Assembly (NCBI GenBank): GCA_964527715.1
Contig: CAZGOD010000004.1
Coordinates: forward strand, 11,355 to 75,354
Source: an uncultured Thermoplasmatales archaeon
GTDB lineage: Archaea; Thermoplasmatota; E2; DHVEG-1
Length of the DNA: 64,000 nucleotides
Direction of reading: 5' to 3'
The notes under the pieces are model-generated. The model was not told the origin of the DNA. It worked only from the letters and a program-made list of their open reading frames with translations, and did no database searches. Below are positions 29,736 to 53,981 of this stretch, piece after piece (the stretch's first letter is position 1; every line of letters starts with the position of its first letter). Made by a program: the position numbers and the translations under genes.

Positions 29736-30257
29736 ATGATCAAGATAGCTGGTGCAGAGGGAGACATACAGAACGTTGATAGTTTTTTAAAAAACATTGA
29801 GAGTTTTGAGAAAGATCATGATGTTGTGATTCAAGCTTTTAACGCGAATCTAATATTTGGAGAAAAACATCTTATCTCTGCAGTAGAACATGCTATTAGA
29901 GCAATTAAGAGAAAAACTAATACCACTAAGTCTCTAGGTATGGAAATTTTGTTATACGCATCTGGGGAACGACAGTTAAAACTCGCCATCCCAAAGATGG
30001 GAGTTAAAAAAGGTAAAAACAGTGTTGCTTTTACTTTAGTAAATAGAATCGGAGAAAATGACGTAAAGATATCTGACAATCTAATTACTGAGTTGTTGAA
30101 AGGTTTATCTCTTAAGAGAAATGATAAAGTCTTGGAAGGTAGTAGTAAGACTCTTAAAAAATTTGGAATAAGTGATGATGAAGTTGGGACTGTGACGAAA
30201 GATAAATATGGTAATATTATTTTGGAAAAAGTCGCAATGGTCGACATCATTAAATAA
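29736..30257 (+). CDS. cgi121: Putative KEOPS subunit Cgi121
   Basis: VIQAFNANLIFGEKHLISAVEHAIRAIKRKTNTTKSLGMEILLYASGERQLKLAI resembles the conserved core of archaeal Cgi121. The size (173 aa) is in range. Confidence 0.5.
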   Translation: MIKIAGAEGDIQNVDSFLKNIESFEKDHDVVIQAFNANLIFGEKHLISAVEHAIRAIKRKTNTTKSLGMEILLYASGERQLKLAIPKMGVKKGKNSVAFTLVNRIGENDVKISDNLITELLKGLSLKRNDKVLEGSSKTLKKFGISDDEVGTVTKDKYGNIILEKVAMVDIIK

Positions 30258-30331
30258 GCCCGCATGAGGTAGTTTGGATATCCTGAAGGCTTGCGGAGCC
30301 TTCTACTCGGGTTCGAATCCCGATGCGGGCG
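30258..30331 (+). tRNA. tRNA-Arg (anticodon GCG)
   Basis: 7-bp acceptor stem GCCCGCA/UGCGGGC. Anticodon stem AAGGC/GCCUU with loop UUGCGGA (U33, G37). T-arm UCGGG-UUCGAAU-CCCGA. Discriminator G. No encoded CCA. The D-arm is less canonical: 3-bp AGG/CCU with an internal GGATATCC palindrome. Confidence 0.85.
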
Positions 30332-30341
30332 TAAAAAACAC

Positions 30342-31073
30342 TCAATTTTTTTTGTTAAATATGTAAAATAGAATTGCAATTAATGCTATATGATATGCAA
30401 ATCCTATCCCTAAATGGACAATGTCGAGTGTCCCATTTTGGAGTACAGAGTCAAGCGACATAATTGTCCAAAAGTTTGGAATTGGGCTAAATATGTATTT
30501 AAGATTACCAAGGTTGAGGAAAAAGGCAAATAATGGAAGTATAAATACTGTTCCAGAAATTTTGAAAATAGCGAAAGCTTGTACTTTATTTGATGCAAAT
30601 GAACTTACCAATAACGCAAGAAATGGTGTAAAAAGCGCAAACAATATAGCAACTGGAATATACGCAGAGTATGAAAATTGTGTGCCATCTACAAGTCCTG
30701 AGAGCGGAGGAAATATTAGCAACACAATAAAGGCAAAAAGTGACATAAAAAACATACGATATACTAGATAGCTATTTCTTGATATAGGCATAACTCGTAG
30801 AACTGTTAGTAAATGCTCATCTCTTTCATCTAGTATTAAAAATCCAACAATGAAACTGAAAATCATTGGAATCGCTATCGAAAAAAACATAAAAAGTAAT
30901 GGAAAATTTGCTGCAAGAGGAAACACATTTTCAATTCTTGGCGCGATCAAATGTACAATTATTCTTGAAAATACAATTAACATAACTGGATAAAGAAACA
31001 ATAAAAAAACAAGGAGACGATCCCGTATAACGTTTCTTAAGTCATTAACTGCAAGTTTGAGGATATATACCAT
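30342..31073 (-). CDS. ABC-2 type transporter permease
   Basis: 243 aa with 6 TM helices, in an operon with an ABC ATPase. Confidence 0.55.
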   Translation of the reverse strand: MVYILKLAVNDLRNVIRDRLLVFLLFLYPVMLIVFSRIIVHLIAPRIENVFPLAANFPLLFMFFSIAIPMIFSFIVGFLILDERDEHLLTVLRVMPISRNSYLVYRMFFMSLFAFIVLLIFPPLSGLVDGTQFSYSAYIPVAILFALFTPFLALLVSSFASNKVQAFAIFKISGTVFILPLFAFFLNLGNLKYIFSPIPNFWTIMSLDSVLQNGTLDIVHLGIGFAYHIALIAILFYIFNKKN

Positions 31074-47702: not shown

Positions 47703-47923
47703 TATTTACACCTTAAATCTATTTATTGATAACTTTAGGCAATCCTGTACCCATTTTAAAGGTTATGGTATCATGTTCTATGTTAAAGAGTAATATAAAA
47801 ATTTAATTGAAGATAAGAAATTTTGCACAATAATTTATGTAAAATATTTTGCTGGTCGAGAAGATGCTGTTTCTGGTTGGTTGGACAAACACTTTAAAAA
47901 TGGAAAACTTCCAATAGAATCAT

Positions 47924-48106
47924 CTAACAGGGACTACCATCCTCTATCCAATTTATTAGTTTCTTTCTACATTTAATACAAAGATGCCATTCATACGGTT
48001 TACCTTTACCCGGTTCAGAATAATCACAACGCACTAATGTATCAAACATATCCTTGTATACATTTTGACATTTAGAACATTCTATTTCCATTATCTTCAA
48101 CCTCAC
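47924..48106 (-). CDS. Small Cys-rich (putative zinc-binding) protein
   Basis: 60 aa with CSKC and CIKC pairs plus 2 further Cys residues. No family recognised. Confidence 0.35.
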   Translation of the reverse strand: MRLKIMEIECSKCQNVYKDMFDTLVRCDYSEPGKGKPYEWHLCIKCRKKLINWIEDGSPC

Positions 48107-48126: not shown

Positions 48127-49254
48127 TTATTCAATCTTCACAAGTTCTTTCCCATGAAGCTGTTTCAACCTATTTTTTATAATGCGTATCGATACATATT
48201 CTGGAGCAATGGAAAACGTCATTGCTGGTGAGAGATACGTATTTTTTATCGCACCTATGCAGGTTGGAAACTGTTGATCCAATTTTTCTTGCCATTCTAA
48301 GTGATCTTCTATTTTATAAAACGTGCTTAATACCACTAAGTTGTATCCGCCTCTGCCAAGGACTGCTTTGATTATCCAGGTTACATGTGGATCGGTTTTT
48401 AACGACTTCAATATTTTATCCTGCTGTTTTTTAATTTGAAACAGGGATTTCACTAAAATGTACTCAGGTGGGACAATCAATCTAGGAAACCGACAGACAG
48501 GTCTGCTTATGATTCCTCCTTTTAGGAGGGTGTCTATTCGTCGTTCAATTGTCTTTCTGTGAATATTAAGTTTTTTTGCTAAAAAATTCTCGTTCGTCCG
48601 TATACCTACGCCTTGTAATATCTTTTTTAATATTTCAAAAGACAACTCGTCTAATTCAAAGCCTCGTATCGATTTTTGCCGTCCTTCCTTAATATTTTGT
48701 TCAATTACTTTGACTGAGATTGAGGGGTTGTATTTTTCAAAACATCCAGTTCCTAAGTGAAGTACTTGTGAGGAATATCCTTCTTCCCTATAGGGGATAA
48801 TCTCTTCTTTTATTATCTTTTCATGCCATTGCTGGTGAGTACAGACATTTTTATGAAAAGATATCATCATGGTGTTATGTTCTTCTTCCTTGAAGAAAAA
48901 TGCAGCAAAGATAGGGTCATTATATTCGATAAAATGTTTTGTTTTTTCATCTCTCAAAAAATTGTCCCTTGAAATAATCATGAGTGGTAATTCTTTGAAT
49001 AACCATGGAAACGGATATTGTGGTTTGTTTATTATTTTATGTTCAAGTAGTTGATTTATTCTGTCTTTAATGGTATTCCGATGTTTACTAAGGTTTTTTG
49101 AGAGTTCACTGATATTGATTTCTACTCCTTCTCCCGAGACAAGGTATTTCAGTAATTTTAGGTTTAATTCATTATTTAGCAAATCAGTCATAAAACATGG
49201 TATACAATGTTGATTTTTATACTTTTTTCCCATTATTAATATCATTTTTAACAA
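48127..49254 (-). CDS. Transcriptional regulator with two tandem Lrp/AsnC-like winged-HTH modules
   Basis: Two HTH regions (ISELSKNLSKHRNTIKDRINQLLEHKII and ENFLAKKLNIHRKTIERRIDTLLKGGII), each followed by an effector-like domain of about 100 aa. Confidence 0.5.
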   Translation of the reverse strand: MLKMILIMGKKYKNQHCIPCFMTDLLNNELNLKLLKYLVSGEGVEINISELSKNLSKHRNTIKDRINQLLEHKIINKPQYPFPWLFKELPLMIISRDNFLRDEKTKHFIEYNDPIFAAFFFKEEEHNTMMISFHKNVCTHQQWHEKIIKEEIIPYREEGYSSQVLHLGTGCFEKYNPSISVKVIEQNIKEGRQKSIRGFELDELSFEILKKILQGVGIRTNENFLAKKLNIHRKTIERRIDTLLKGGIISRPVCRFPRLIVPPEYILVKSLFQIKKQQDKILKSLKTDPHVTWIIKAVLGRGGYNLVVLSTFYKIEDHLEWQEKLDQQFPTCIGAIKNTYLSPAMTFSIAPEYVSIRIIKNRLKQLHGKELVKIE

Positions 49255-49538
49255 TGTGTTATAGATAGATTGTCATCGGTAATAGCCAATATACAGTAGA
49301 TTAATAACAATCATTATCCAAAGTAAGCATCGATCATTAGCATCTTTAGCATAATCCTCGTCTTTTTATGTATATATAGTTTATTAAGAAGTTCGAAATA
49401 TATATAGTATTAAAGATGACATAAATTATGGAAAAAATATCATTATTGTTCAAAAGGAGAACAAAAAAATGAGCTCTGAACAGGAGGTTAAAGAATAATA
49501 CCAAATGGGACTGATGAAAGAGAAAAAAGGAGTGAAAA

Positions 49539-50087
49539 ATGAAGATAAGTGCAAGAGAAATATTGAAAGAAAATGAAATAAAGAATAAAATCAAAGAATG
49601 TTTTAAAAAATGTGCCGCGGGTAGACAACAACTAAGGGTTTGCATTTCAAATTCGATGGATATAGGGTTATCAAAAGAAGAAGTTCTAGCAATCATCAAC
49701 GAAATGGGCACTGATGTTGGTCAGGACGAGGCATCTATGTGTTCTATAGTGGCTATAGGTCAAGCGATGCGATATGAAGAAAAACATGCAAATAGAAAAA
49801 CAGTTACATCATCAAATAATGGAAAAAAATCTGCAAAAATTAAGATTCAAAAATGTATTCGAAAGTGTGGTTCAGCTAAAGGGCTATTGAAAAAATGTAT
49901 TACAGATGCAGTGGATGCTGGATTATCCAAAGAAGAAATTTTAGCTTTTACAGATGAAATAGTCGGTGGAGTAGGCAAGGACGATGTATCTCTGTGTGGT
50001 ATAATAGCTGCAGATCAAGTGTTAAGATACGAAGAAAACGTAAGGGCCAAGCCAATTGATATTATTAAAGAGCGAGAAATGGAATAG
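49539..50087 (+). CDS. Protein built from two copies of an unrecognised ~65-aa four-Cys repeat (CxxxC-x9-C...C)
   Basis: Internal duplication: KIKECFKKCAAGRQQLRVCISNSMDIGLSKEEVLAIINEMGTDVGQDEASMCSIVAIGQAMRYEE and KIQKCIRKCGSAKGLLKKCITDAVDAGLSKEEILAFTDEIVGGVGKDDVSLCGIIAADQVLRYEE. Confidence 0.6.
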   Translation: MKISAREILKENEIKNKIKECFKKCAAGRQQLRVCISNSMDIGLSKEEVLAIINEMGTDVGQDEASMCSIVAIGQAMRYEEKHANRKTVTSSNNGKKSAKIKIQKCIRKCGSAKGLLKKCITDAVDAGLSKEEILAFTDEIVGGVGKDDVSLCGIIAADQVLRYEENVRAKPIDIIKEREME

Positions 50088-50095
50088 GGAGCTGG

Positions 50096-50197
50096 TTGAA
50101 TCCCTTCTGCCCTGATTGTGGAGCAAGGATGCGGCATCTGATAAATCCAATGGGATACCGGTGTCCTAAGTGTGGTAAAATAATCAAAGATAAATAA
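50096..50197 (+). CDS. Candidate mini zinc-ribbon ORF (33 aa, TTG start) between the two Cys-repeat paralogs
   Basis: Manual translation gives LNPFCPDCGARMRHLINPMGYRCPKCGKIIKDK, i.e. CPxCG...CPxCG. The only in-frame ATG (50129) would cut off the first CxxC, so the start is uncertain. Confidence 0.3.
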   Translation: MNPFCPDCGARMRHLINPMGYRCPKCGKIIKDK

Positions 50198-50299
50198 TGA
50201 TTTATGAAAATTGAAGGAAAACGAGCACAACTTGTTCAAAGGGGATTTCCTCAGATATGTCTTCCAATTAATTAGACAAGATTATTGGTGAAAGACCTT

Positions 50300-50836
50300 A
50301 TGAATAAAAAAGACATAAGAAACAGGCTCAGAGAATGCTTTAAAAAGTGTGCTTCAGGAAGAACACAACTTAGAAATTGTGTCATCGATATTATGGACGC
50401 AGGATTAACCAAGCAAGATGTGCTAGATGTTGCCGACGAGATGGCCACAGGAGAGTGGAAGGACGAAGCGTATCTTTGTGCTGTAACCGCAATTGGTCAA
50501 GCGCTTCGATACGAAGAAAAACACAAAAGAACCAGACCAGTTTTGATGGAGGAAGAGACAAAAGAGCTAATAAAGGACAAATTGAAACAATGCTTTAAAA
50601 AATGTGGTCTCGCTAGGAGACAACTCAGAAAACGCGTGGTAAATGCACTGAATGCTGGAATGACAAGGGAAGAAATCTTAGCTATCACAGATGACATAGT
50701 TGGTGGTTTTGGAAAAGACGAAGTCTCAGTGTGCGCTATTATTGCAGTAGAGCAAGTTTTAATACATAACGAGACTGAAAAGTTGAAAAAAATTGTCAAA
50801 ATGTATGCGCCGTATATGGAATTTCCTGATGAATAA
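50300..50836 (+). CDS. Paralog of the 49539-50087 protein; two copies of the same Cys repeat, the second copy lacking the third Cys
   Basis: RLRECFKKCASGRTQLRNCVIDIMDAGLTKQDVLDVADEMATGEWKDEAYLCAVTAIGQALRYEE and KLKQCFKKCGLARRQLRKRVVNALNAGMTREEILAITDDIVGGFGKDEVSVCAIIAVEQVL. The track ORF starts at a TTG at 50285; ATG at 50300 is preferred by analogy with the paralog. Confidence 0.6.
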   Translation: MNKKDIRNRLRECFKKCASGRTQLRNCVIDIMDAGLTKQDVLDVADEMATGEWKDEAYLCAVTAIGQALRYEEKHKRTRPVLMEEETKELIKDKLKQCFKKCGLARRQLRKRVVNALNAGMTREEILAITDDIVGGFGKDEVSVCAIIAVEQVLIHNETEKLKKIVKMYAPYMEFPDE

Positions 50837-50905: not shown

Positions 50906-52558
50906 ATGAAACAGACAGCATCGTTGAGACCAACATTGCAGAAGAAAGATAGATATGATGTAATGTATAAGAATTTTAAATGGAATGTTCCAGAGTATTA
51001 TAATTTTGGTTTTGATGTGGTAGATCAATGGGCTGAAGACAGAACCAAACTTGCTTTGATTTCAATTGATAGAAGTGGTAAAAGAGACCGTTATCATACA
51101 TTCTATGATCTTAAGGTTCAATCAAATCAGTTTGTCAATGTTCTTAGAAAAATAGGTGTAAAGAAAGGTGATAGAGTTCTAGTAATTCTACAAAGCGTTC
51201 CAGAATGGTATGTGGCTCTTATTGGTATGTTTAAACTTGGTGTTGTTCCCATGCCCGGTACTGTTCTTTTAACTTCTAAAGATGTTAAGTATAGGGTTAA
51301 TCGTGCCGAGGCATGTATGGTTATTACTGATATGGATCATGTCGATAATGTTGAAGTAGTCGAAAATAAATGTCCCACATTAAAACATTTTATGCTTGTT
51401 GATGGTAAAAGAAAAGGATGGATGAATTTCAATGAGGAAATGAACAAAGTATCTCGTGATCTTTCTCAAAAAGAGATCGGTAGAACATCTTCAGATGATC
51501 CTATGCTTATTTATTTCACTTCAGGTACTACTGGTCATCCTAAGATGGTTCTTCATACCCATAGTTATCCTCTTGGTCACGAGGTTACTGCACGTTTTGC
51601 TCAGGCGCTTACAAAATGTGATCTTCATTGGGCCATATCTGAAACGGGATGGGCAAAAGCAGCGTGGGGTAAATTATTTGGTCAGATGATTGTAGGTGCT
51701 GCTGTTATCCAGTGGGAGACACCTGGTCGTTTTGATGCCAATGGGTTGTTACAAGCTATGGAAAAATACGGTGTTACCACGTTTTGTGCTCCTCCTACTG
51801 TGTATCGTATGCTTATTCAGCTTGATCTTTCAAAATATAACCTTAAACTTCGTCATTGTATGAGTGCAGGTGAACCTCTGAATCCTGAGGTTATTAAGGT
51901 TTGGAAGGAAACGTTTGGTTTGGAGATTTATGATTTCTATGGTCAGACTGAAACAGTATGTGTTCTATCTAACTTCCAATTTATGCCTATCAGGTTTGGC
52001 TCTGTTGGCAAGCCAACTCCGGGTCATGACGTGCGAATTGTTGATGATAATGGAAAAGAGCTTAAATATAATGAAGAGGGCAACATTGCACTTTATCTCA
52101 GTGATGAGCATCCGCCAGGTCTTTTCAAGGAATATTGGAAAGATGAAGAGATCATGAAAAAGTCATTCCGTGGTGACTATTATTATACTGGCGATCGGGG
52201 CTATAAGGATGAAGATGGGTATTTCTGGTTTGTTGGAAGAGATGATGATGTTATAAAATCATCAGGTTATCGTATTGGACCATTTGAAGTCGAATCTGCT
52301 CTGATGGAACATGATGCAGTGGCTGAATGCGCAGTCGTCGGTTCTCCAGATCCTACAGGTGTGAGAGGAATTGTAGTAAAGGCATTTGTAGTACTTGCAA
52401 AAGGATATAGCCCCTCAGAGGTGCTTACGAAAGAGTTGCAAGAACATGTAAAGAACGTTACAGCTCCTTACAAGTACCCGCGTATTATTGAATATACGAA
52501 AGAGCTTCCGAAGACAATCTCTGGGAAGATACTCCGACGTGAACTTAGAAGAAAGTAA
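50906..52558 (+). CDS. AMP-forming acyl-CoA synthetase/ligase (ANL superfamily)
   Basis: YFTSGTTGHPKMV (AMP-binding P-loop), YGQTE, YYYTGDRGYKDEDGYFWFVGRDDDVIKSSGYRIGPFEVESAL, PKTISGKILRREL (A10 lysine). Confidence 0.85.
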   Translation: MKQTASLRPTLQKKDRYDVMYKNFKWNVPEYYNFGFDVVDQWAEDRTKLALISIDRSGKRDRYHTFYDLKVQSNQFVNVLRKIGVKKGDRVLVILQSVPEWYVALIGMFKLGVVPMPGTVLLTSKDVKYRVNRAEACMVITDMDHVDNVEVVENKCPTLKHFMLVDGKRKGWMNFNEEMNKVSRDLSQKEIGRTSSDDPMLIYFTSGTTGHPKMVLHTHSYPLGHEVTARFAQALTKCDLHWAISETGWAKAAWGKLFGQMIVGAAVIQWETPGRFDANGLLQAMEKYGVTTFCAPPTVYRMLIQLDLSKYNLKLRHCMSAGEPLNPEVIKVWKETFGLEIYDFYGQTETVCVLSNFQFMPIRFGSVGKPTPGHDVRIVDDNGKELKYNEEGNIALYLSDEHPPGLFKEYWKDEEIMKKSFRGDYYYTGDRGYKDEDGYFWFVGRDDDVIKSSGYRIGPFEVESALMEHDAVAECAVVGSPDPTGVRGIVVKAFVVLAKGYSPSEVLTKELQEHVKNVTAPYKYPRIIEYTKELPKTISGKILRRELRRK

Positions 52559-52897: not shown

Positions 52898-53692
52898 ATG
52901 CAAATGATTGAGCTTTTTGGTGTAGAAATATTAGGCATTCAAATATTTTTAGTAATGATAATCTTAGCTTTTTTCTGTGAACTTCTCGATTCGAGTTTGG
53001 GCATGGGATATGGGACAACATTGACACCTGTATTGATGCTATTTGGTTTTGCTCCACTTGCTATAATACCATGTGTATTATTATCTGAGTTAATAACTGG
53101 TATAACCGCAGGGCTTGCTCATCATAAAGCAGGTAATGTCAATTTCAATCGAGGATCAATACATCTTAAAATTGCTCTAGTTCTTGCGGTATGTAGTATT
53201 ATCGGGGCGACTATTGCAGTATTTGTAGCAATCAATATTCCTAAATTGTGGTTGAAGACATACATTGGTGTGCTTGTTTTAGGAATGGGAATAATTATAC
53301 TTCTGACACTGAATAAAGATTACAAATTCTCGTGGAAAAAGATTATTGGGCTTGGCTCAATTGCTTCATTTAATAAAGGGATGAGTGGTGGTGGATATGG
53401 CCCTGTTGTCACTGGGGGTCAGATTCTCTCTGGAGTGAATGGTAACAATGCTGTTGGAATTACTTCCCTAGCGGAGGGACTTACTTGTGTTGTTGGTGTA
53501 GTTGTCTTTGTAGCTTCCCCCGAGATCATTAATTGGAGTCTTGCCCCATCATTAATCATTGGAGCATTATTTTCTGTACCGTTTTCTGCATTTATCGTCA
53601 AAAAACTTCCAACGAGAACGTTGAAGATTGCTATAGGTGCATTAACATTCACACTTGGGTTAGTAACATTAATCAAAGTTTTTTGTTTCTAA
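52898..53692 (+). CDS. TSUP (TauE/SafE, DUF81) family membrane transporter
   Basis: 264 aa with 7-8 TM helices, the LLDSSLGMGYGTTLTPVLMLFG motif, and a duplicated 4-TM architecture. Confidence 0.7.
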   Translation: MQMIELFGVEILGIQIFLVMIILAFFCELLDSSLGMGYGTTLTPVLMLFGFAPLAIIPCVLLSELITGITAGLAHHKAGNVNFNRGSIHLKIALVLAVCSIIGATIAVFVAINIPKLWLKTYIGVLVLGMGIIILLTLNKDYKFSWKKIIGLGSIASFNKGMSGGGYGPVVTGGQILSGVNGNNAVGITSLAEGLTCVVGVVVFVASPEIINWSLAPSLIIGALFSVPFSAFIVKKLPTRTLKIAIGALTFTLGLVTLIKVFCF

Positions 53693-53798: not shown

Positions 53799-53981
53799 AT
53801 GAAAGTCGAATTGGAAGATGTAAAATGTATAACAGATACAGCATTGACAATTAGAGGATCAAGAAGAAGAATAACAGTGCCTTCTGAAGTAGTGGAAGTT
53901 CTCAAACTTAGAAATGGTGACAAGCTACGATGGATCATTTTTAACAATGGAAACATACAACTTCATAAGGTAAAAAAATAA
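53799..53981 (+). CDS. AbrB/SpoVT-type swapped-hairpin small DNA-binding protein
   Basis: RRITVPSEVVEVLKLRNGDKLRWIIFNNGNIQL fits the AbrB-family ..ItIP...r..l.l..GD.l pattern. 60 aa. Confidence 0.5.
   Translation: MKVELEDVKCITDTALTIRGSRRRITVPSEVVEVLKLRNGDKLRWIIFNNGNIQLHKVKK

Follow-up and report, generated by a model that had tools for sequence, protein, structure and literature searches.

What is the role of two small, adjacent, cysteine-rich genes that resemble no named family? The question is raised by the window analyzed here, a stretch of 64,000 nucleotides (G+C content 35%) from an uncultured Thermoplasmatales archaeon (GenBank assembly GCA_964527715.1, contig CAZGOD010000004.1, positions 11,355–75,354 of the forward strand; coordinates below are window positions unless another locus is named). 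The genes in question, gene A (49539–50087, + strand) and gene B (50300–50836, + strand), had been picked out by an earlier, sequence-only reading as tandem paralogues built from an unrecognized four-Cys repeat. We find that they belong to an undescribed protein family that is conserved and under purifying selection, and we tentatively place this family in thiol or sulfur redox metabolism.

Genes A and B are conserved paralogues with an internal duplication

Gene A is an open reading frame (ORF) encoding a two-module, predicted all-helical Cys protein of 182 amino acids (aa), with a C-terminus of the type that we call tail A, ending ...RAKPIDIIKEREME. Gene B encodes a paralogue of 178 aa with a C-terminus of a second type, tail B, ending ...EKLKKIVKMYAPYMEFPDE. 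Over 165 aa, the two proteins share 48% of their residues (E = 2e-59). The internal repeat is far beyond chance, since even module 1 of A and module 2 of B can be aligned (39% identity, E = 1e-20); the proposed arrangement of same-strand tandem paralogues, each with an internal duplication, therefore stands. Repeat, alignment and structural model together delimit module 1 of A at 49551–49796 (approximately residues 5–86) and module 2 at 49806–50051 (approximately residues 90–171), the latter followed by a conserved tail that is modelled with low confidence. The repeat unit had thus been recognized correctly, but its proposed length of ~65 aa was too short: with the full first helix, the module is nearer 75–85 aa.

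The cysteines of A lie at positions 21, 25, 35 and 68 (module 1) and 106, 110, 120 and 153 (module 2), giving the spacing C-x3-C-x9-C-x32-C in each module, in agreement with the CxxxC-x9-C...C arrangement first read from the sequence. Residues invariant in an alignment of the four modules are C21, K24, C25, L32, G43, L50, D63, C68, A72, Q75 and E81. As also noted earlier, the third Cys of module 2 of B is replaced by Arg ('LRKRVVNAL'); this is the sole Arg at that column among 135 two-module family members.

Both genes are conserved and under purifying selection. The ratio of non-synonymous to synonymous substitution rates (dN/dS) is 0.09–0.32 for gene A, measured against orthologues in other loci, and 0.07–0.09 for gene B (orthologues in loci L010, L016, L005 and L020). 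An identical copy of protein A occurs on three independent metagenome contigs, each time with the same neighbours, and the A+B pair is found repeatedly, in either gene order. Shine-Dalgarno-like motifs lie 5–11 nt 5' of all four + strand genes from A through the downstream acyl-CoA ligase gene. For gene B, an alternative TTG start exists at 50285; the ATG is the start used in orthologues.

The family is undescribed and found mainly in sediment Thermoplasmatota

A word-indexed search of 5.8 billion proteins returned 134 clusters, all of ~160–220 aa and 50–100% identical. Together with the range of dN/dS (0.07–0.3), this bears out the conservation of the ORFs on which the sequence-only reading depended. 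When 1.84 billion representatives were searched exhaustively with an HMMER profile, only 34 clusters were returned, among them (i) fragments, (ii) the divergent two-module proteins P0122 and P0123, (iii) single-module proteins of 69–107 aa that resemble module 2 plus tail A (P0134, P0137, P0138, P0144, P0150 and P0151), and (iv) the zinc-ribbon fusion P0153 described below. Two of the single-module proteins, P0138 and P0144, have as many as six Cys on the helix face that bears the Cys in A and B. Members are mostly stand-alone proteins of 69–219 aa; the longest has 235 aa (P0128).

The hosts are almost all sediment Thermoplasmatota (Thermoprofundales, also called Marine Benthic Group D or MBG-D, and relatives), and on this basis we assign the window, too, to an archaeon of the Thermoprofundales/MBG-D type. 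A scan of GTDB, with one representative per species, gave nine loci: these lie in metagenome-assembled genomes of Thermoplasmatales/Thermoplasmatota (including SG8-52-3), in one 'Promethearchaeota' genome, and on one short contig binned as bacterial. Family genes were also seen on short contigs binned as Aegiribacteria or Aminicenantes (L013, JAUVUL010000070.1; MCK4429754.1), probably as a result of binning contamination. In the locus labelled Promethearchaeota (L018, CP070831.1), the LplA-like neighbour closely resembles, by eye, its counterpart in Thermoplasmata archaeon M9B1D (L017).

No characterized family accounts for these proteins, in line with the original view of the module. Profile searches with A and B gave nothing above threshold in Pfam or NCBIfam and nothing in PADLOC or PHROGs. 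Against PDB sequences, neither single-protein nor family-profile searches found a significant match, and a Foldseek search of the PDB gave no match with an E value below 0.15. In the source databases, members are called 'hypothetical protein' or bear an evidently spurious automatic label; no functional name is given. The A/B family is thus undescribed, with neither a Pfam model of its own nor a functional name in any source.

Predicted fold and arrangement of the cysteines

An AlphaFold model of protein A, built with a 63-sequence alignment, is all-helical (predicted local distance difference test score, pLDDT, 83; predicted template modelling score, pTM, 0.76) and ends in a low-confidence tail. 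Its helices span residues 5–41, 46–57, 62–82, 93–126, 131–143 and 150–170, so that each module consists of a long helix with Cys 1–3, a short helix (which in module 1 begins with 'GLSKEE') and a third helix with Cys 4. Cys 1–3 of a module occupy positions i, i+4 and i+14 of one continuous helix, on the same face (pLDDT >90), and span ~21 Å end to end along the predicted helix. Because of this span, a single mononuclear site for Cys 1–3 plus Cys 4 is excluded in the model. One four-Cys site per module therefore appears unlikely, although a kink of the helix at the invariant G28 would change this.

How, then, might the cysteines be used? Their conservation across the 135 two-module members is uneven. 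The second and fourth Cys of each module are practically invariant: C25, C68 and C110 are kept in 135/135 members and C153 in 134/135. The first Cys (C21 in 123/135, C106 in 130/135) and the third (C35 in 131/135, C120 in 126/135) are less strictly kept, one or other being replaced by Tyr, Phe, Ser or Gly in ~17% of members. Two pairs of losses go together across modules. Firstly, the first Cys of module 1 and the third of module 2 are lost jointly in four sequences that are mutually 50–71% identical (Fisher p = 0.0037). Secondly, the third Cys of module 1 and the first of module 2 are lost jointly in two sequences (Fisher p = 0.0064). None of the remaining four Cys pairings shows significant co-loss in this set. 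Both couplings are compatible with one antiparallel register (i + j = 141), in which the long helices cross at G28/A113. From these coupled losses we infer cross-module pairs C21..C120 and C35..C106, which would flank the invariant C25/C68 and C110/C153. The conservation pattern hence suggests Cys centres that are shared between the modules.

The same data can be read without any chemistry. The cysteines could be purely structural core residues of a protein, for instance a helical scaffold or a chaperone-like protein, whose function has nothing to do with redox chemistry or metals. They do lie in the a/d stripe of the long helix (I14-L18-C21-C25-G28-L32-C35-A/S39-A42), at core positions next to Gly, Ala and Leu; the substitutions of the first and third Cys fit such a role, and genes for HSP20 and the thermosome lie near some loci. 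Against it, four Cys are kept in 134–135 of 135 members while identity drops to ~35–50%, the cross-module co-loss implies paired function, and the single-module relatives have a still larger number of Cys along this face of the helix. We consider a purely structural role unlikely.

Genomic neighbourhood

Exact-protein look-ups, the GTDB scan and one metagenome scan were pooled to give 102 loci, which fall into 79 groups at 95% nucleotide identity. Downstream neighbours were counted in the 39 groups with at least 3 kb of downstream sequence, and upstream neighbours in the 49 groups with at least 1.5 kb of upstream sequence; the contigs carrying some of the most divergent or single-module members (P0123, P0138 and P0137) are too short to show neighbours.

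An AbrB-like gene is the commonest neighbour (24/39 groups), followed by TauE (17/39), HdrC (14/39), HdrB (12/39), an acyl-CoA ligase (8/39), an LplA-like gene (7/39) and PstS (6/39). Two types of Hdr operon recur. In the first, found in at least eight loci whose opposite flanks vary, the order is B-A-LplA-like-HdrC-HdrB-giant HdrA-like. In the second it is A-(Zn)-B-(ligase)-TauE-AbrB-HdrC-HdrB-HdrA, with an HdrA of 657 aa (L035, L056 and L091; the L084 contig ends at HdrC). In addition, the family gene of L020 has beside it a divergent gene for a fusion of Pyr_redox_2, rhodanese and TusA domains; L056 has a relative with Pyr_redox_2 alone, ~4.7 kb upstream.

In the window, gene B is followed on the + strand by (i) an AMP-forming acyl-CoA synthetase (50906–52558), closest to the MbcS and acetate-CoA ligase models and below the cut-offs of both, (ii) a TauE/SafE (TSUP) anion permease (52898–53692; Pfam E = 2.6e-30), and (iii) a 60-aa AbrB/MazE-like (SpoVT-AbrB) protein (53799–53981; identified by PF04014 matches of its orthologues and by tblastn). 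Upstream, on the - strand, lies a divergent gene for a tandem Lrp/AsnC-like protein (48127–49254) with two units of winged helix-turn-helix (wHTH) and RAM-like domain. The order wHTH then RAM, and a confident tandem fold, uphold its earlier identification as an Lrp/AsnC-like regulator. Beside it, at 47836–47913, is a 26-aa relic, 81% identical to part of a TrmO gene that is intact in L056 (1379–1858). It shows that the DNA adjoining the regulator has been rearranged locally.

The divergent intergenic region (49255–49538) contains AT-rich boxes that are conserved in an alignment with L010, L027 and L014, which represent three other lineages; they are candidate archaeal TATA elements. Bacterial promoter and terminator models, applied to this archaeal DNA, gave no useful signal (7 promoter-like sites, with 7.2 expected from shuffled sequence), and Rfam gave no match within the A/B locus.

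The sequence-only reading had proposed that regulator, pair and ligase form one regulated module. Synteny is indeed partly conserved: a Lrp-like gene lies upstream in 16/49 groups (glutamate dehydrogenase in 12/49), and the ligase frequency is given above. Yet the Lrp-like family has a broader distribution than the Cys family. It occurs also in Bathyarchaeota and Hodarchaeales, and both there and in some MBG-D loci it stands beside glutamate dehydrogenase, so the Lrp-like gene is not a specific partner of the pair. On these grounds we have downgraded the idea of a 'regulator + acyl-CoA ligase' operon. These three elements are not the conserved unit; AbrB-like, TauE and HdrC/HdrB genes are commoner neighbours. 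In L025 and L056, a divergent gene pair is inserted between the regulator-side small genes and gene A; it consists of a Pat-like acetyltransferase (ADP-forming acyl-CoA synthetase plus GNAT, ~890–920 aa) and a gene of the histone-deacetylase family.

Two further ideas can be judged from the locus groups. A defence or phage-gene function was rejected, given the empty PADLOC and PHROGs searches. The other idea is that A and B are precursors of ribosomally synthesized and post-translationally modified peptides (RiPPs), in which a leader of Nif11 type would be cleaved at GG ('IVGG') from a Cys-containing core. It draws on a weak Nif11 match (E = 0.19), on 'VGG' before the fourth Cys of module 2, and on the occurrence of tandem paralogues. 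However, the proteins are conserved over their whole length and predicted to fold, dN/dS is low throughout, including the would-be core, and none of the 79 groups shows a modifying enzyme, a C39 transporter or a hypervariable core. With conserved fold, low dN/dS and no maturation neighbours all against it, this hardly credible explanation was rejected.

A zinc ribbon and other small genes beside the pair

The spacer between A and B holds a 33-aa ORF (50096–50197, + strand) with a TTG start, a GGGAG motif upstream, and the pattern CPDCG-x13-CPKCG. Its identification as a zinc ribbon is confirmed: it exceeds the Pfam cut-offs of Zn_ribbon_TiaS (33.6 against 27.3 bits) and Zn_ribbon_NUD (26.6 against 24.8 bits), and with two CxxC knuckles (CPDC-x14-CPKC) and these model matches it has the features of a zinc-ribbon protein, as judged from its sequence. 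The counterpart in L010 is 62% identical, and there the TTG start and the stop of A share bases (TTGA). The proportion of non-synonymous differences (pN) is 0.23 against a saturated synonymous proportion (pS) of 0.77. In P0035 the ribbon is fused in frame to A, and P0153 is a module-plus-tail fragment fused to a different, unrelated zinc ribbon.

In the window, gene A ends at a TAG (50085–50099 region) that replaces a conserved Arg codon in the tail of relatives (...KERxLE-R-GDx*). The ancestral TGA, 11 nt further on, still overlaps the zinc-ribbon TTG as TTGA (compare L010, 6558–6561). Owing to the early TAG, the window's sub-lineage therefore lacks the last four residues of A and the stop/start overlap.

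The ribbon was detected in 15/79 locus groups. Decayed copies, with Cys-to-Tyr changes, lie after gene A in L005 (5733–5819, with an in-frame stop), L013, L014 and L016, and it has therefore been lost repeatedly. We conclude that the zinc ribbon is a real, linked, facultative accessory partner of A, and that it is dispensable.

Other small genes accompany the family. A second family of Cys/His mini-proteins, unrelated to the zinc ribbon, with the motif ..C.(L/I)D..TG.F.CK.C...V..DW.....(F/Y)C.. (e.g., L027 7564–7815; L025 2097–2288 and 2553–2744) and without a Pfam match, occurs in the A–B spacer or behind the Lrp-like gene in 19/79 groups. Many loci have, upstream of A, a small basic ORF that overlaps A's start, a 74-aa degenerate single-module gene, or both. 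The basic ORF is intact in L004, L007 and L010. Its start-less remnant survives in the window at 49495–49542 ('IIPNGTDEREKRSEK*'), where its stop overlaps the gene A ATG. About 300 bp that are present in L010, with the rest of the basic ORF and the 74-aa gene, are absent from the window. Also near the regulator is a gene for a 60-aa Cys-rich mini-protein (47924–48106, - strand; C-x2-C ... C-x2-C), which is 78% identical in L016 and has no match in Pfam, PADLOC or PHROGs.

Such company raises the possibility that A and B are regulatory adaptors or anti-repressors that bind the AbrB-like protein, the Lrp-like protein or the zinc ribbon and in which the Cys act as a switch responding to redox state or metal. 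In its favour, AbrB-like and divergent Lrp-like genes are frequent at these loci, mini zinc proteins abound, and the conserved disordered tails look like docking peptides. A Pfam scan of 63 family members individually also gave weak matches to the anti-repressor SinI in 58 of them, on the 'GLSKEEIL' helix-cap motif. These matches lose weight on inspection. The window proteins score 24.5 and 14.7 bits, below the gathering threshold of 31.4 bits for the SinI/SinR helical hook (PF08671), and just 12–17 residues are aligned, a motif common to many helical hairpins; judged by sequence, the SinI match is not evidence of homology. Likewise, the AbrB-like gene always follows a transporter (TauE or Pst) rather than adjoining A or B, and the Lrp-like family, as described above, tracks glutamate dehydrogenase. 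A regulatory adaptor thus seems rather unlikely to us, albeit worth keeping in mind.

A tentative role in thiol or sulfur redox metabolism

The explanation that we favour, in the knowledge that it may well be wrong, is that A and B, as soluble all-helical proteins, are a small Cys-based redox carrier (of electrons or sulfur) or sensor. The long helices of the two modules would pack antiparallel, crossing at G28/A113, and both modules would contribute Cys to buried, shared centres, which could be dithiol/disulfide pairs or metal or Fe-S sites with Cys ligands. Tail A (RAKPIDIVKER.LERGD) and the zinc-ribbon mini-protein could serve as docking elements, and A and B would probably form a hetero-oligomer where both genes are present.

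The recurrent neighbours suggest that the family belongs to thiol/sulfur redox metabolism, because they include TauE with the AbrB-like gene, HdrCBA operons with or without an LplA-like gene, and, in two lineages, a CoADR-type disulfide reductase (the L020 copy being the one fused to rhodanese and TusA). Two published systems have comparable gene content: tauE is part of the CstR-controlled persulfide-response (cst) operon of S. aureus (PMC5480029), and Hdr-like sulfur-oxidation clusters are accompanied by LplA-like ligases, TusA and rhodaneses (PMC6067878).

Several points weigh against a redox carrier or sensor. Hdr, LplA and CoADR genes are absent from the whole of the 64-kb window, and where LplA or Hdr genes do follow the family, the gaps to them are 180–290 bp. 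Since a single archaeal order supplies nearly all loci, the shared neighbourhood could be a matter of common descent and not of function. The co-loss statistics are uncorrected for shared ancestry and rest on four and two sequences. A substrate arm like that of DsrC is hard to reconcile with invariant Cys that are predicted to be buried, and in anaerobes a protein's core Cys may have no more than a structural role.

A more specific proposal goes further than the redox carrier or sensor: A, B and the single-module relatives would be an unrecognized helical class of Cys redox proteins—a dithiol couple, or a 'helical ferredoxin' whose Cys4 centres are shared by pseudo-symmetric modules—and the physiological electron or sulfur partner of HdrCBA in non-methanogenic sediment archaea. 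We regard this as very doubtful. It would matter if true. Thermoprofundales are among the most widespread archaea of marine sediments; to our knowledge, they have no cultured member. In common with many non-methanogens, they possess HdrABC-type genes without a known substrate. A family with invariant Cys, found beside two types of Hdr operon, TauE and sulfur-transferase fusions, is an easily expressed candidate for the missing redox or sulfur partner. Even if the link to Hdr fails, there remains an undescribed Cys-helix module that merits a Pfam entry, and a family in which a module was duplicated within the gene, the gene itself was duplicated to give two types of tail, and a zinc ribbon was repeatedly gained, fused and lost by decay. 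Should the Cys be only structural, it would be one more lineage-specific domain of unknown function.

Elsewhere in the window

Further downstream on the same stretch, a PAD_porph-type deiminase gene (58276–59415) is followed by tandem paralogues (59516–60835 and 60907–62217) that are 49% identical and have hydrophobic N-termini; the first passes the Peptidase_C39_2 threshold and the second gives a weak match only. After these comes a convergent radical-SAM/SPASM gene (62210–63247, - strand). The region 58276–63247 may be a peptide-maturation cluster. A tRNA gene lies at 30258–30331 (+ strand; Rfam, 53.7 bits), and the long - strand ORF across it (29831–30379) is probably spurious.

Comparison with known families and systems

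Besides SinI, four known groups bear comparison with A and B; the nearest are Arc_PepC, by a borderline link, and AhpD/CMD, by a possible likeness in fold. The first, Arc_PepC (PF06819), is the only curated family whose threshold any member passes. It matches 40 of the 63 scanned members at E ≤ 10, over helices 1–2 of the module, and its cut-off of 23.4 bits is exceeded by P0091 (29.6), P0097 (25.6), P0084 (25.3) and P0079 (25.1). Gene A itself has no match and gene B, at 16.7 bits, stays below the cut-off; just the C-terminal half of the model is matched (positions 53–107 of 110). Arc_PepC is the C-terminal domain of some archaeal A24 prepilin-type peptidases, whereas none of the proteins found here has a peptidase domain; with 235 aa as the greatest length in the exhaustive HMMER search, there is no relative of peptidase size among its results. 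We found no papers on Arc_PepC in the literature; the domain is itself uncharacterized and says nothing on the function of A and B.

The second group comprises the thiol or sulfur carrier proteins of Hdr-type CCG enzymes: DsrC (for DsrK) and LbpA, TusA and DsrE (for sHdr). Here the likeness is one of genomic company only—HdrC/HdrB operons with CCG domains, LplA-like genes, rhodanese-TusA, TauE—and there is no relation in sequence or fold between A/B and these carriers. DsrC carries two Cys on a flexible C-terminal arm, whereas A and B have their invariant Cys on helices and a conserved tail without Cys; LbpA carries its lipoyl-lysine on a beta fold, and A and B are all-helical.

The third comparison is with the CMD/AhpD family (PF02627), and it brings a further explanation with it: A and B could be divergent AhpD/CMD-type thiol enzymes (alkylhydroperoxidase-like or disulfide reductase-like) with two fold repeats, as in M. 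tuberculosis AhpD. The stretch 'C35-xxx-A-xxx-G-x-S-x-E-E-V' of A/B mirrors the CMD motif 'H-xxx-A-xxx-G-x-T-x-E-E-I', and hhalign of the module profile against CMD gave P = 0.009 when six seeds were used. That signal faded to P = 0.05–0.08, with a probability of ~1%, against a full profile of 126 sequences (PDB-derived seeds plus 120 database homologues). By hmmscan, the window proteins have no CMD match and 7 of the 63 homologues match weakly (best E = 0.041); in the family-profile search of the PDB, 2af7 had E = 0.83. Nor is the active site there: in place of the catalytic C-x-x-C-x-x-x-H, A/B have, counted from the shared 'A-xxx-G' motif, G28 and Q31 at the CxxC positions and C35 at the His position, and their own Cys lie 18 and 22 residues before G43. 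The two-module arrangement matches no solved AhpD, and the Cys pattern C-x3-C-x9-C...C differs. Membership of the CMD family is therefore not supported, given the full-profile hhalign result and the absent catalytic CxxC-xxx-H, and an AhpD-type enzyme is improbable; the module may nevertheless resemble AhpD at the level of the fold.

The fourth group, the twin-CX9C/CX3C hairpins (CHCH proteins such as Cox17, Cmc1 and the small Tims), differs from A and B in that its members are far smaller proteins of eukaryotes, located in the mitochondrial intermembrane space. Weak Pfam matches among the 63 members (CX9C in 31, Cmc1 in 23, zf-Tim10_DDP in 6; E = 0.01 or worse) all stay far below threshold and are driven by Cys spacing, and A and B carry C-x3-C-x9-C on one helix, which sets them outside the CHCH class. 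What the two groups have in common is the principle. CHCH-type proteins likewise place their Cys on the contact faces of antiparallel helices, in a symmetric 'twin' pattern, and use them for disulfides or for Cu/Zn binding; the A/B version of such a twin, as far as the co-losses indicate, would be C-x13-C, with C21 facing C120 and C35 facing C106.

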